From Escherichia phage PBECO4, in sequence record KC295538: a stretch of 64,000 bases of DNA, one strand, 5' to 3'. The notes below the pieces were generated by a model, which was given only the letters and a program-made list of their open reading frames with translations, was not told the DNA's origin and searched no databases. The translations under genes were made by a program, and so were the position numbers. Positions 46,237-63,816 of the stretch are shown piece by piece. The stretch's first letter is position 1, and each line of letters opens with the position of its first letter.

Positions 46237-46464
46237 TCAATTTATCATTTGAAAAATAGTATACGAACCACTTCCATCTTTAAATACTTCTTGACTTTCA
46301 AACATAAACTTCTTTCCATCTATTTTTGCTGTTTGTGTTGTTACATCCAAATACAAATTGTAGATAGTGTCAGTTTTTGTGGATTTACATGTTGTTGATG
46401 CTTCAGTTTTTGCATTCACTGTTGTTGATAAACACATTAACAAAACTAACATTAACTTTTTCAT
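46237..46464 (-). CDS. small secreted protein (signal peptide)
   Basis: MKKLMLVLLMCLSTTVNA. Confidence 0.6.
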   Translation of the reverse strand: MKKLMLVLLMCLSTTVNAKTEASTTCKSTKTDTIYNLYLDVTTQTAKIDGKKFMFESQEVFKDGSGSYTIFQMIN

Positions 46465-46484
46465 TTTAATTAACCTCTTTTGTT

Positions 46485-47624
46485 TTACAAAATTACTTCA
46501 CCAAAAATACCATTGATATCACGTTCAATGATGTATTCACCTTCATGTTCAGCTAAGAACTTTTTAATGGCTTCGTTAACTTTAGGACGATGAATGTTGT
46601 TGAATGTTTCAGTGCAACCATCTCCCTTTTCATAATAACCTTTATTATATAGTTTACCACATAACGCAATTGTATGTATTATTATTTCCAATTCTCTAGC
46701 AAGTTTCCCACCCACATTCTTATGAAATAAAATGGAAATTTCATTACTCCAAAAATTATCTACTTTATATATTTTTTTATAAGATAAGTTTTGTGGACTT
46801 AATCTTGCTTTAATAGTTTTGTTTGTAATACCAGCTTTATCCGAATTTTTTGCATAATCATTGTGAATATAAAATCTTCCAGGCTTGGAAGTTTTAAATC
46901 CTTTTACTGCACACGTGGGACAACCAGAACCAGACAGATGTGAATTTGGTGTTTGTTGAAATTCACCATGTTCTTTGCATATTATAATAGAGGTTACTTG
47001 GTTGTTAATGTAGTCATATAAAGAATAATCATACTTATTTCCGTGTATAAGATGTGATTTTTTTATAAATTCACCTAAAGTTTGTTTTAAAGTTTGTTTC
47101 GTGCATTCTTGACAACCAATTTTACCAGTAGCTAAGTCAGTAATTGTGGGTTTTTTTATATCACCACAATCATTACATACTACTTCAATTTTAGTTCTAC
47201 TAGGAAGTGTAGAGTTAAACGAAGTTATTCCACTATAAGTAAATTTATCATAACCATATTTTTTGTTGATGACACTAATATGATTAATGGTGTAATATGG
47301 AATATTAATAATATTGTAAAAAATCTTCCCATTAAATCCCTGCCTAATAAAATTCGTGCAGGTGGCTCCAATAACTAACATACCATCGTTATTCACTACA
47401 AGTTTGGTTTTTGATTTAGATATATAATCTTGTGATCTATTGATATAGAATCCAAGAACTCTTGGATCATTTATTTCACCCATAATACTAATAGGATCTT
47501 GAGCAATGTTGGATTTTTTTACAAAATTTATATCTTCGGCTTTCATCCACTCAAAAAGCATTCCATGCTCTTCATAAAAATAAACTTTTTCACCATCTTC
47601 ATTAAAATAGTACTGTTCAAACAT
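46485..47624 (-). CDS. Cys-rich protein with putative zinc-binding motifs (possible nuclease-like; function unknown)
   Basis: CNDCGD...GCQEC and CKEHGEF..HLSGSGCPTC clusters in 379 aa. Confidence 0.5.
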   Translation of the reverse strand: MFEQYYFNEDGEKVYFYEEHGMLFEWMKAEDINFVKKSNIAQDPISIMGEINDPRVLGFYINRSQDYISKSKTKLVVNNDGMLVIGATCTNFIRQGFNGKIFYNIINIPYYTINHISVINKKYGYDKFTYSGITSFNSTLPSRTKIEVVCNDCGDIKKPTITDLATGKIGCQECTKQTLKQTLGEFIKKSHLIHGNKYDYSLYDYINNQVTSIIICKEHGEFQQTPNSHLSGSGCPTCAVKGFKTSKPGRFYIHNDYAKNSDKAGITNKTIKARLSPQNLSYKKIYKVDNFWSNEISILFHKNVGGKLARELEIIIHTIALCGKLYNKGYYEKGDGCTETFNNIHRPKVNEAIKKFLAEHEGEYIIERDINGIFGEVIL

Positions 47625-47853
47625 TACTTAAAACTCCTTTCCAGTACTGAACCCGTCCAGCACCATTAATCTTAGCTTGAATCTTATCTTTTTCGACAAG
47701 ACCTTCTTTGAAATCTATGGACGTATTATCGCACTTAATTACATCTAAGTCAAGTACTTCTTGTGTACTTAATGAAGTATTATCTGCAATTTGTTGTAAA
47801 GTAATTACATCAGTACCGAAGAATTCAGCTAATCGTATAAAAGATAGTTTCAT
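47617..47853 (-). CDS. hypothetical protein
   Basis: Track ORF; overlaps downstream gene start. Confidence 0.55.
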   Translation of the reverse strand: MKLSFIRLAEFFGTDVITLQQIADNTSLSTQEVLDLDVIKCDNTSIDFKEGLVEKDKIQAKINGAGRVQYWKGVLSNV

Positions 47854-47887
47854 TTGTTACCTCTTGTGTTGATGAAATAATTATAGC

Positions 47888-47915
47888 AAAAAGGGCTGAC
47901 CGAAGTCAACCCTTT
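47888..47915. terminator. TTGACT-containing hairpin element (copy 6)
   Basis: aagggctgaccgaagtcaacccttt. Confidence 0.5.
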
Positions 47916-47918
47916 ATG

Positions 47919-48278
47919 TTATTCTAATTCACTCATAGTACTAATAGTTAATCCCATTTCTTCTGCAATGTTGCATAACAGACCAACTGCATTGCGAAGA
48001 ATATCAGTGTTATCCACCGAGAATGATGAGTTTTCATTTACCGTTGAAGACTCAATGTAGTACTCAAAATAACGAGAAGTTGAACGCACAACTTTAACAC
48101 CTTCATACTTCTGTAGTTCAGAGTTGATACGCTCGATGAGCGAATCTTCCAGTACTCGATAGTCACCATTCATTCCACGTTTCCATCCATCAGCAGGACG
48201 GAAATAAAAAGTTTTTGTACGTTGAATTGTTGAGATTGTTAGTGGGTTGTATTCCGCGATTTCACTTAAAGATGCCAT
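47919..48278 (-). CDS. hypothetical protein
   Basis: Track ORF. Confidence 0.55.
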   Translation of the reverse strand: MASLSEIAEYNPLTISTIQRTKTFYFRPADGWKRGMNGDYRVLEDSLIERINSELQKYEGVKVVRSTSRYFEYYIESSTVNENSSFSVDNTDILRNAVGLLCNIAEEMGLTISTMSELE

Positions 48279-48340
48279 ATTGTATTCCTCATTTTCTTTG
48301 TTACATGATACTGAAAGATAAAACTGGTGTCAATGTTTTT

Positions 48341-61805: not shown

Positions 61806-62021
61806 TTATTGTATCAAAGATGTATCGATTTGTACAACATTTATTGTAACTATTTCGTACATATAGTCAGGTGCATTGAACTCAGCATACCACTCAATGA
61901 TCTCACAAGCAGCATCAACTTGGTTGTTCGCATTAACACGTCTTGCATAGGTACTAGACATTTTATATCTACCATTTACATACACGTTATATACACCATG
62001 ACACCACCACATCTTAGTCAT
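61806..62021 (-). CDS. hypothetical protein
   Basis: Track ORF. Confidence 0.5.
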   Translation of the reverse strand: MTKMWWCHGVYNVYVNGRYKMSSTYARRVNANNQVDAACEIIEWYAEFNAPDYMYEIVTINVVQIDTSLIQ

Positions 62022-62232
62022 TTATACTAGGCCATACTTTGTATTGTAAGTTCTGGTATTGAAATTTACCAATTTCATTTTTCTTACGGAATGATTCATC
62101 TACTTGAATTTCCGCATCGTACTGACCATCAGCCTGTACAACGTACTTAAATTCTTCTACGTGTGAAAAACGTAGACCTTCACCTTCTGGTTTATAGACT
62201 TGTACTAAACCTTCAACTAGATATAAATTCAT
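62014..62232 (-). CDS. hypothetical protein
   Basis: Track ORF. Confidence 0.5.
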   Translation of the reverse strand: MNLYLVEGLVQVYKPEGEGLRFSHVEEFKYVVQADGQYDAEIQVDESFRKKNEIGKFQYQNLQYKVWPSIND

Positions 62233-62235
62233 TTA

Positions 62236-62457
62236 TCATTCCTCATCACTTTCAGTTAGTATAATGCTATGTACAGTTTCCACATAGCGGTGTGTTTTGG
62301 GTGTGTTATACTTTGTAATTTCATCAAACAATTTAAACAGTGCATCTACTTCACTAAGAGCACGAATGAATACATCCATCTTGGTGACTACTCTGGAAAA
62401 CCCGCGTATGTTATTAAATTCAGAGACGTGTTCATACACAACATAGTATCTATTCAT
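62236..62457 (-). CDS. hypothetical protein
   Basis: Track ORF. Confidence 0.5.
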   Translation of the reverse strand: MNRYYVVYEHVSEFNNIRGFSRVVTKMDVFIRALSEVDALFKLFDEITKYNTPKTHRYVETVHSIILTESDEE

Positions 62458-62972
62458 ATATTAAAAAGTTCCATGAATTCATTGAATAAAGAAGTTCTAA
62501 TGCACATAACAAATTCAAAATCAACATCTATGGTGTCAAGTAGTTTGAACAACTTTGGTACTAATGGATCATTCACCTCAAAGTTATGAATCAAACTTTG
62601 TTGAAACACATTTTCTTCAGTACTATAATCAATAACAAAATATTCAGCAATACCAGGTGGTGTGTAAACATCATATAAAATATGGCGGTGATGATTTGTT
62701 TTAGAACTAGGGGAATATATAAGTTCTATTTCATAAGATTTATCAGCACTGCGTGCGTAACAAACAATATCAGTACTCGTTATTTCTGAACCATCACTTC
62801 TCTCTGAAAAACAAACATCAGCATAGCGTTTTCCAGAGAGATTCAAAAGGTCATGAGTTGTTTTACCATAACAGAAATCAGTTTCAATGCGTATCACATC
62901 TTGATATTCAATTGGTCTTGTATCGCGGCGTTCACGATTAAACACTAATTTCAACAACTCATTAATATCCAT
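62454..62972 (-). CDS. hypothetical protein (172 aa)
   Basis: Track ORF. Confidence 0.6.
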   Translation of the reverse strand: MDINELLKLVFNRERRDTRPIEYQDVIRIETDFCYGKTTHDLLNLSGKRYADVCFSERSDGSEITSTDIVCYARSADKSYEIELIYSPSSKTNHHRHILYDVYTPPGIAEYFVIDYSTEENVFQQSLIHNFEVNDPLVPKLFKLLDTIDVDFEFVMCIRTSLFNEFMELFNI

Positions 62973-63172
62973 TATTTCGCCTCGATAACCTTAAGGTTAA
63001 CAAAATCACCTTTTACTTTCATGCATTTGAATTCAGTGCGAGTTTCATCCCCACTATCGCGAGGCCAATGAGTGGCAGAGTAGCACTGGTCTGGTGTTTT
63101 ATATACACCTTCACCAATAGTACGAGTGATTTCACCATTGGTGAGAACTACTGCGAGATATAAAGTAAACAT
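62972..63172 (-). CDS. hypothetical protein
   Basis: Track ORF 62972..63229 trimmed to MFTLYLAVVLTNGE.. Confidence 0.5.
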   Translation of the reverse strand: MFTLYLAVVLTNGEITRTIGEGVYKTPDQCYSATHWPRDSGDETRTEFKCMKVKGDFVNLKVIEAK

Positions 63173-63325
63173 GATATTCGCCTTAGAATAATTTATTAAT
63201 AATAATAGCACCCAACGCAAGAACTGCAATAATTACAGATACCCACATTACTGCATTCACTGTACCAGTAAGTTCTTTATCAAACTCCCTGCACTTCTTG
63301 CGGTAATCTTCCCACTCTTTGTTAT

Positions 63326-63541
63326 TCACACTGCCACTCCTAATAGGTCGGTAGCTTTCTTGAGTACTACGTCAATGGTTTCCAGTACTGCACCTTTGTG
63401 TTCAATTGATACAATATTATTATAAGTATCAAGGTCCAAGTACTCCATATATTCAGTTTTGAATACACGAACATCAGTACTAGTGATTTTAATATCACAA
63501 CCTTTATCCCAAATAACCTGCATCATTTCATTGGTAGTCAT
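63326..63541 (-). CDS. hypothetical protein
   Basis: Track ORF. Confidence 0.55.
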   Translation of the reverse strand: MTTNEMMQVIWDKGCDIKITSTDVRVFKTEYMEYLDLDTYNNIVSIEHKGAVLETIDVVLKKATDLLGVAV

Positions 63542-63816
63542 TATTCAACCTTATCATAAACAAGTTTGTGTGTGCTTAGTACTTTGTTGTGATGTCCAGG
63601 GCATTCATATACATACAATCGCTCCTGTCGTTTTTCCCAACCACCACAGATACGACCTGATTGTGTACATACCTCATACTCGTTAATAAAAGACTTACCT
63701 GTGAATGTACAATCCTGACGAACTAAGTCTTTTGCACTAAACCTGCCGTCATCATTACATGCTGTAAGAAACATTGTACAGAATACAAAGACAACTGTCA
63801 ATAGTTTTTTAATCAT
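63541..63816 (-). CDS. putative lipoprotein
   Basis: MIKKLLTVVFVFCTMFLTAC signal with lipobox-like LTAC. Confidence 0.55.
   Translation of the reverse strand: MIKKLLTVVFVFCTMFLTACNDDGRFSAKDLVRQDCTFTGKSFINEYEVCTQSGRICGGWEKRQERLYVYECPGHHNKVLSTHKLVYDKVE

Follow-up and report, generated by a model that had tools for sequence, protein, structure and literature searches.

In jumbo phages of the RaK2/121Q type, which are considered for therapy, more than 80% of the genes lack a known function. Small genes with export signals in such a genome raise the question of what their products might do at the envelope of the infected cell, and whether they do it together. This question was addressed here for a stretch of 64,000 nt of Escherichia phage PBECO4 (record KC295538), hereafter the window, which belongs to a 350-kb E. 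coli jumbo phage of the 121Q/RaK2 group (Asteriusvirus, approximately 98% identity to 121Q and CRJP21). The initial annotation had described, at 46237-63816, a cluster of at least seven small open reading frames (ORFs) starting with a signal peptide or a lipobox, here named c1 to c7, and had pointed to superinfection exclusion or modification of the cell envelope as the frequent role of phage proteins of this kind. Judging from sequence features, export of these products to the envelope is well supported, and we hold it with high confidence. The best explanation of the data is that the exported proteins do not make up one system, and that at their core stands a conserved, apparently early operon or module at 59.3-61.1 kb, in which two genes of a predicted beta-barrel family (c5 and c4) alternate with genes for polytopic membrane proteins. 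The feature is real but moderately ordinary, a lineage-restricted form of a known theme, that of phage-encoded exported envelope factors.

Export signals in seven small genes

All seven ORFs were present as listed and located on the minus strand, so that the coordinates quoted in the initial annotation were their stop-codon ends, and all of them were kept by a simple codon-usage gene caller. The start codon was ATG in every case, found for c6 (63541-63816) within an ATGA overlap with the stop of the preceding gene, and a Shine-Dalgarno sequence of the GAGG/AGGA/GGAGG type was located 6-9 nt upstream in six of the seven. Export signals were searched with a rule-based scan, written for this analysis, which demanded an n-region of net positive charge, an h-region of 10-20 hydrophobic residues free of charges, and either a lipobox or small residues at -3/-1; proteins with another transmembrane (TM) segment were excluded. 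Exactly c1-c7 passed among the 132 gene calls of the window (5.3%), as compared with pass rates of 1.8% for non-gene ORFs (4 out of 224) and 0.26% for shuffled proteins, so that the description of seven small ORFs with a signal peptide or lipobox was borne out.

Six of these ORFs (c1, c2, c3, c4, c5 and c7) showed n-region, h-region and -3/-1 features of the signal peptidase I (SPase I) type in the scan. With a slash marking the predicted cleavage site, their signal peptides were MKKLMLVLLMCLSTTVNA/K in c1, MKKYIIFGIVLFSSTAYG/A in c2, MKYIVLVLILFSTVVSA/K in c3, MKIILFFVCMLMCGLSYA/E in c4, MKSYIKLIALVCALFSCFSYG/AAA/E in c5 and MKIAIIALALSVSSFAVNA/S in c7, while the predicted lipoprotein signal of c6 was MIKKLLTVVFVFCTMFLTA/C (lipobox L-T-A-C). 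Five of the proteins are predicted to have cleavable SPase I signal peptides and to be soluble periplasmic products; for the exported set we infer cleavage, disulfides, localisation, expression timing and function. The n/h/c architecture and the cleavage motif were kept in homologues at 30-50% identity, with signal peptides MKYLVLVLLFLSTVVCA/K and MKYMLVALMFVSTIVQA/R in homologues of c3, cleavage regions ...FLAHG/T, ...FNANA/S and ...SSAMA/V in those of c7, ...TTAFS/T in a c2 homologue, and the lipobox region ...LFLSAC/DD in a c6 homologue. Within the c5 subfamily the signal-peptide columns were 30% identical versus 59% in the mature part, the hydrophobic core being kept.

A second feature shared by much of the set was a pair of terminal cysteines. 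Exactly two Cys were present in each of c3, c4, c5, c7 and the intact orthologue of c1, one of them at most 12 residues from the predicted mature N-terminus and the other at most 6 residues from the C-terminus, a pattern displayed by 0 of 91 proteins of 50-140 aa that lacked a signal peptide.

Regarding location, six of the ORFs lie within 46237-63816, as annotated, and c7 (18668-18967) falls outside that range. The term cluster held in part. Positives of the scan were enriched towards the right end of the window, where 6 of the 42 genes located from 46 kb onwards passed, compared to 1 of the 90 genes before that point (one-sided Fisher test, p = 0.004, post hoc), yet the set was heterogeneous: it comprised at least five unrelated families, with c2, c3, c7 and the lipoprotein c6 as singletons scattered among cytoplasmic and virion genes, and only 59.3-61.1 kb formed a conserved module. 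This segment would be the one true multi-gene unit among the exported genes.

A conserved module at 59.3-61.1 kb

In order of transcription, the five-gene block on the minus strand consists of TM80, TM108, c5, TM125 and c4. TM80 (60878-61120) encodes a protein of 80 aa with 3 TM segments; its gene is located upstream of the promoter described below and is syntenic with the module. Transcription from the promoter would reach TM108 first (60494-60820; 108 aa, polytopic with 3-4 TM segments by hydropathy), a gene that lies immediately upstream of c5 (60056-60415), whose ORF, ribosome-binding site and scan result define a protein of 119 aa with a signal peptide of 21-24 aa and a mature 95-aa domain. 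TM125 (59668-60045; 125 aa, polytopic by hydropathy) is located between c5 and c4 (59315-59665), the latter encoding an exported paralogue of c5 with 116 aa and an 18-aa signal peptide (SYA/E).

A sigma-70 promoter at 60867-60894 on the minus strand matched the consensus at 12 of 12 positions (TTGACA, 16 nt, TATAAT), with its -10 region lying within a recurrent motif, AGTACTGTATAAT. From its position, the promoter would drive TM108, c5, TM125, c4 and the following 63-aa gene (59119-59310), after which a terminator hairpin, AAAGGTTGACTTCGGTCAGCCTTT, with a T-run (59104-59127, minus strand) closes the operon.

The order TM80-TM108-c5-TM125-c4 was kept in Klebsiella phage RaK2, in E. coli phages A4 and Ecwhy_1, and in a metagenomic contig (L016). 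The counterpart in RaK2 was ORF263-267, with 29-46% identity for the four matching proteins, and identities of the module proteins ranged from 24 to 46% in the most distant genomes sharing the order. In A4 (3278-3538 of the locus) and in the metagenomic contig (1243-1503) a gene for a DksA/TraR-type C4 zinc finger was found between TM80 and TM108; this insert was absent from the window, Ecwhy_1 and RaK2.

Promoter and terminator motifs of the window

The motif AGTACTGTATAAT (searched as AGTACTNTANNAT) occurred 27 times in the window, compared to an expectation of 0.45, and 21 of the copies were on the minus strand. The copies usually followed a TTGACA-like hexamer by approximately 9-10 nt, as at 60867-60879, 50277-50289 and 19019-19031, and most of them preceded the many small genes at 7.7-26 kb (sites within 7746-26914). 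The motif probably marks an early promoter class of this phage. Sigma-70 matches at 11 or more of the 12 consensus positions numbered 13 on the minus strand vs. 1 on the plus strand, an asymmetry which argues that the matches are real.

In addition, an 18-nt hairpin repeat, GGTTGACTTCGGTCAGCC, was present in 12 copies, all on the minus strand (5928, 8185, 11404, 15024, 46104, 47894, 48818, 53016, 54105, 55682, 55865 and 59107), each with a T-run behind it and, in many cases, a TATAAT at a distance of 18 nt from the TTGACT of the repeat. The repeat resembles a terminator and a -35 element in one, which would delimit transcription units. One small gene (55708-55821), coding for a 37-aa peptide with a single TM segment, was flanked by two of these hairpins and sits between a pair of paralogues (54133-55644 and 55890-56273) that encode virion structural proteins.

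The phage clade is reported to rely on host RNA polymerase (PMC7318152). Together with the promoter and motif signals, this suggests that the module would be expressed early.

The c1/c4/c5 family and its disrupted copy

The proteins c4 and c5 matched each other weakly (blastp E = 1e-3; PHROG cross-match E = 2.5e-3), and c4 matched the profile of the family at 2e-32. When homologues from a collection of 5.8 billion proteins were included, c1, c4 and c5 aligned over their full length with both Cys invariant. A profile of the mature domain, searched against the six-frame translation of the window, matched the c1, c4 and c5 loci only; c2, c3 and c7 were rejected as further members (hhalign probability at most 0.3%).

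Outside the window, a HMMER search of 1.84 billion representative proteins with the family profile retrieved approximately 10 small phage proteins of 80-132 aa, most of them with an N-terminal signal peptide. Giant proteins with Ig, TIG or TQ repeats also appeared in this search and were judged spurious, as only a hairpin-sized stretch was matched, many times over. The tblastn matches of the family were confined to the 121Q/RaK2 group, in jumbo phages of Escherichia, Salmonella and Klebsiella, and a scan of IMG/VR returned 121Q itself only.

An AlphaFold2 model of c5, built from an alignment of 21 sequences (pLDDT 81), showed an N-terminal helix, corresponding to the signal peptide, and behind it eight beta-strands, the first of which carries Cys28 and the last Cys117. 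The mature domain is thus modelled as an eight-stranded antiparallel beta-barrel. Foldseek searches of this model against the PDB gave a best E of 0.02, with TM scores of 0.34-0.45 and approximately 10% sequence identity; the weak neighbours were avidins (rhizavidin, shwanavidin), the lipocalin-like Tp0751 and NanoLuc, that is, generic up-and-down barrels. Among them, the avidin and lipocalin (calycin-like) barrels were the best structural neighbours, a resemblance of generic fold only. Against BFVD, the model matched a c4-type model from the slurp01 orthologue (E = 8e-6) and a 93-aa protein of 121Q (TM score 0.67) that fits gp222 as annotated and is probably this c1 orthologue; weaker matches were a Serratia phage lipoprotein (E = 0.011) and a "Putative lysozyme inhibitor [Serratia phage Moabite]" (E = 0.03). 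A sequence search of the PDB with the family profile yielded nothing meaningful (for the barrel and lipoprotein profiles the best match was to TcdA repeats, at E of approximately 0.5). The three genes define a new, previously undescribed family, found only in RaK2-like phages, whose members are beta-barrels by model.

The third paralogue, c1 (46138-46464, minus strand), is disrupted in this phage. Its ORF (46237-46464, 75 aa) stops at an in-frame TGA, and the same frame runs on to 46141, as seen by tblastn with a 108-aa homologue (P0018) that was identical to the window at 94 of 108 residues across the TGA; in 121Q, gp222 is an intact protein of 108 aa. Comparison with the DNA of 121Q revealed the loss of 1 nt from a T-run and, 21 nt downstream, the insertion of 1 nt, which together produce seven out-of-frame codons and a stop. 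The truncated product is devoid of the last strands and of the C-terminal Cys. Since PBECO4 gp305 ends in ...QMIN, as does the truncated c1, the truncation is a shared allele and not a random read error. Targeting to the periplasm, as initially proposed, is indicated by the Sec signals and the lipobox of the set, with the reservation that c1 is a damaged copy here (75 aa instead of 108).

The disrupted gene belongs to a variable island (46138-47624), directly downstream of a 379-aa ORF (46485-47624) with a weak match to treble-clef zinc fingers, probably a homing-type endonuclease. In 121Q and in a metagenomic relative this ORF was replaced by a different gene, encoding a 487-aa protein with endonuclease and CapR domains.

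Candidate functions of the module

Export, synteny and promoter signals leave the question of what the module does. The reading favoured here, which we consider about evenly balanced between right and wrong, is that the products of the exported genes are accessory proteins made early, by which the envelope of the infected cell would be remodelled or guarded, superinfection exclusion included. Host RNA polymerase would transcribe the module soon after infection, and its membrane proteins, together with their periplasmic partners, would alter the envelope of the infected cell in a way that defeats later attacks: superinfecting phages would fail to bring in their DNA or to digest the wall, or lysis from without would be averted. 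The putative barrels c5 and c4, with a disulfide as staple in each, would bind or inhibit targets in the periplasm, and each would be paired with the polytopic inner-membrane protein whose gene it follows (c5 after TM108, c4 after TM125), with TM80 just upstream. The lipoprotein c6 and the proteins c2, c3 and c7 would likewise be accessory factors directed at the envelope, but independent ones.

The idea of exclusion or envelope modification is an analogy drawn from T4 Imm/Spackle and T5 Llp, consistent with the early-type promoter, the inner-membrane partners, the location of lysis genes elsewhere and fast divergence. With regard to the latter, identities to Ecwhy_1 in the 56-64 kb block were 43% for TM125 (the fastest-diverging gene of the block), 49% for c3, 60% for TM108 and 62% for c5, compared to 75-99% for most other genes.

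The closest parallel is found in phage T4, with Imm in the membrane and Spackle (gp61.3) as an inhibitor of the tail lysozyme in the periplasm. Spackle is an early periplasmic protein of 75 aa in its mature form, with a cleaved export signal and one disulfide, which works alongside the small inner-membrane protein Imm in protecting the infected cell (PMC7677548). The combination of a periplasmic protein with a small inner-membrane protein is mirrored by TM108/c5 and TM125/c4. Differences were also evident: the fold of Spackle is a bundle of alpha-helices, that of c5 all-beta by model, and a sequence search of the PDB detected no similarity between them. Moreover, the imm and sp genes of T4 are not known to be adjacent, unlike the genes of the module, which alternate in one operon.

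A more specific proposal, put forward tentatively and in our view doubtful, is that the module constitutes an undescribed, lineage-specific envelope system of RaK2-like jumbo phages which blocks the entry or the wall penetration of competing phages, in which membrane/barrel pairs would co-evolve and c1 would represent a discarded specificity.

Several results weigh against envelope protection as the role of the set. Searches of Pfam, PHROGs, NCBIfam and PADLOC with the candidates and their membrane neighbours returned only PHROGs of unknown function (0 families with the PADLOC hidden Markov models for all 10 proteins), and neither these libraries nor the PDB or hhalign linked the set, by sequence or by profile, to a characterised protein of exclusion, immunity, lysozyme inhibition or defence. 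The modelled barrel resembles known structures weakly (best E = 0.02), so that its fold says little on function. The signal peptides were called by a purpose-written heuristic and not by a trained predictor, and the early timing of the module is deduced from the promoter consensus alone. The notion of TM108 and TM125 as paralogues, which would make the module a duplicated two-gene cassette, was unsupported (hhalign probability 0.2%). As for divergence, c4 and c5 were 100% identical in 121Q, CRJP21, G17 and SD-15_S21, so that it was fast only between sublineages and hypervariability of the two genes among close relatives was rejected; c6, in turn, was highly conserved (93-99%), with no sign of an arms race. 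As a separate observation, a loop motif resembling F-x-x-D-S-P was common to TM108 and TM125.

Among the alternatives, a sub-case of envelope protection is that the barrels are periplasmic inhibitors of peptidoglycan hydrolases, similar to MliC/PliC or Spackle, that would protect the wall during the long cycle of a jumbo phage. MliC is an eight-stranded beta-barrel, and members of its family (MliC/PliC, PF09864) share with the barrels an export signal or lipobox, a domain of approximately 90 aa and, as seen in the E. coli MliC sequence, one Cys near each terminus; the weak BFVD matches to the putative lysozyme inhibitor of phage Moabite (E = 0.03) and to a phage lipoprotein (E = 0.011) point in the same direction. 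However, membership of the MliC/PliC sequence family was rejected: no Pfam MliC match was obtained at E <= 1, the hhalign probability against E. coli MliC was 0.06%, and the inhibitory SxSGAxY loop was absent (DDSGTLA in c5, NDTDPNF in c4). No MliC or PliC structure appeared, furthermore, in the top 50 fold matches in the PDB, and this explanation is considered unlikely.

Control of lysis timing, with the membrane proteins as holin- or pinholin-like factors and the barrels as antiholins or sensors of lysis inhibition in the manner of T4 T/RI, would account for the presence of small membrane proteins (80-125 aa, 3-4 TM segments, charged C-terminal tails) beside periplasmic ones. In addition, the endolysin of the RaK2 group starts with a TM domain of the kind typically seen in signal-arrest-release endolysins. 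Enzymes of that type depend on a holin, and no holin was named in the literature found on this phage group. Against this, approximately 150 kb separate the module from the spanins (gp511/512) and the endolysin (gp532) in 121Q, its perfect sigma-70 promoter is of the early type while holins are normally late genes, and ten further small 3-TM proteins are encoded in the window, a frequency which shows that proteins of this kind have no specific tie to lysis here. Taken together, these points make a lysis role rather improbable.

We regard it as very unlikely that the barrels bind small ligands in the manner of calycins or avidins and serve, with the membrane proteins, in metabolite uptake or sensing. 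The best PDB fold matches do include rhizavidin, shwanavidin and Tp0751, but all of them were weak (E >= 0.02, TM score <= 0.45, approximately 10% identity), the biotin-binding residues of avidins were not seen when the alignments were read by eye, and the membrane partners matched no transporter family. Equally little credit is given to the view that the N-terminal hydrophobic segments are uncleaved anchors or chance features, clustered without biological meaning, which could draw on the heuristic calls, the post hoc enrichment test and the presence of at least five unrelated families, but which is opposed by h-regions of 12-16 residues followed by canonical A/V/S-x-A/G sites, by the persistence of the signal features in homologues at 30-50% identity, by terminal Cys pairs specific to the set, and by decoy pass rates of 0.3-1.8% vs. 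5.3% observed.

Under the favoured reading, in which the exported proteins remodel or guard the envelope, the gene set acting on the envelope provides a short list of approximately 12 small genes for superinfection exclusion, lysis control and receptor masking, and what is new is a periplasmic family of beta-barrels (by model) with conserved membrane partners. If it is true that the module excludes other phages, it would bear on the design of phage cocktails and would offer an Imm/Spackle-like example from outside the T-even phages; if it does not, the analysis still yields a corrected annotation in terms of start codons, export signals, paralogy and one pseudogene.

Other exported genes

The lipoprotein c6 (63541-63816, minus strand; 91 aa) has the lipobox LTA/C with Cys20 as the lipidated position and four further Cys in its mature part. 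The annotation of a lipobox at 63541 (LTAC) was confirmed, its residues L17, A19 and C20 being invariant in the 7 sequences of the family; the homologue in Klebsiella phage fENko-Kae01 (Kae01) reads LSAC/DD. Position +2 was N in the window and in four homologues and D in P0023, P0025 and Kae01, and position +3 was D in most. In enterobacteria, Asp at +2 leads to retention of lipoproteins in the inner membrane. The sequence of c6 thus suggests a lipidated protein, with N or D at +2 and D at +3 pointing to retention at the inner membrane. Its AlphaFold2 model was unusable (pLDDT 40), and a sequence search of the PDB with the c6 profile gave no match. In 121Q, c6 corresponds to gp177 at approximately 94 kb, where all neighbouring genes are small and hypothetical.

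A known phage lipoprotein, Llp of T5, has 61 aa and a disulfide between Cys11 and Cys58 that constrains its termini (PMC9586334). As in the superinfection-exclusion proteins Llp and Cor, c6 is a small phage lipoprotein, and the terminal disulfide of Llp corresponds to the design proposed for c3, c4, c5 and c7. Llp differs in that it is located in the outer membrane, while N/D at +2 and D at +3 of c6 suggest the inner membrane, and in that its gene lies beside that of the receptor-binding protein; no recognisable gene for such a protein was found beside c6. A role of c6 as o-spanin was rejected, given that the spanin pair of 121Q, gp511/512, is located far away at 245.3-246.0 kb (Kongari 2018, supplement; the endolysin of 121Q is gp532). 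Two genes downstream of c6, at 63183-63329, a 48-aa protein with a C-terminal TM anchor is encoded.

The three other singletons are also on the minus strand. The product of c2 (53810-54061) has 83 aa and an 18-aa signal peptide, and its gene is the first after the hairpin at 54105-54122. In Kae01 (1001-1579 of the locus) a homologue of c2 kept the signal peptide and the N-terminal domain, and carried an additional C-terminal extension of approximately 110 aa with a high content of Cys and of Pro/Lys. Other lineages may therefore encode a larger exported protein of which c2 represents the N-terminal module. The gene c3 (57426-57647) encodes 73 aa, with a 17-aa signal peptide and a mature part of 56 aa bearing the terminal Cys pair. 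The gene c7 (18668-18967; 99 aa, 19-aa signal peptide ending VNA/S, terminal Cys pair) has a promoter motif of the same AGTACTGTATAAT class as the module, and its homologues in W70, Hallingskeid and phiKp_21 kept the signal peptide and both Cys. As regards a virion role of the exported proteins, no protein of matching size was listed in the part of the phAPEC6 virion proteome table that was covered, and its numbering could not be mapped to the genes of the window.

Relatives and neighbouring gene arrays

A megablast search with 46-64 kb retrieved 15 phage genomes at 97-99% identity, each covering at least 80% of the query, all of them Asteriusvirus jumbo myoviruses from E. coli or Salmonella (CRJP21, 121Q, slurp01 and G17 among others). 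The counterpart of this segment in 121Q comprises gp172-gp222, nearly all labelled "hypothetical protein". In the annotation of 121Q the starts of gp188 and gp190 were placed 10 codons, and that of gp222 15 codons, too far downstream, so that the n-regions of their signal peptides were lost. In CRJP21, product names such as "endonuclease V", "protein kinase" and "structural protein" were displaced by approximately 9-10 rows onto the wrong genes.

Two tandem arrays of genes for proteins of approximately 105-140 aa were found at 42786-45225 (seven genes) and 50950-51985 (three genes). In most of these proteins 3 TM segments were predicted and the C-terminal tail was basic, and their pairwise similarity was weak but recurrent, down to E = 2e-9. 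Counting both arrays, TM80, TM108, TM125 and the exported set, approximately one third of the genes at 42.7-64 kb would be targeted to the envelope.

The sole block of the window on the plus strand, at 29841-42100, coincides with a reversal of GC skew. It consists of approximately 10 tandem genes for proteins of approximately 300-430 aa, several of which start with MLPF(A/G/V/P)RM, and RCC1-like beta-propeller repeats were detected in all 3 of the proteins scanned.

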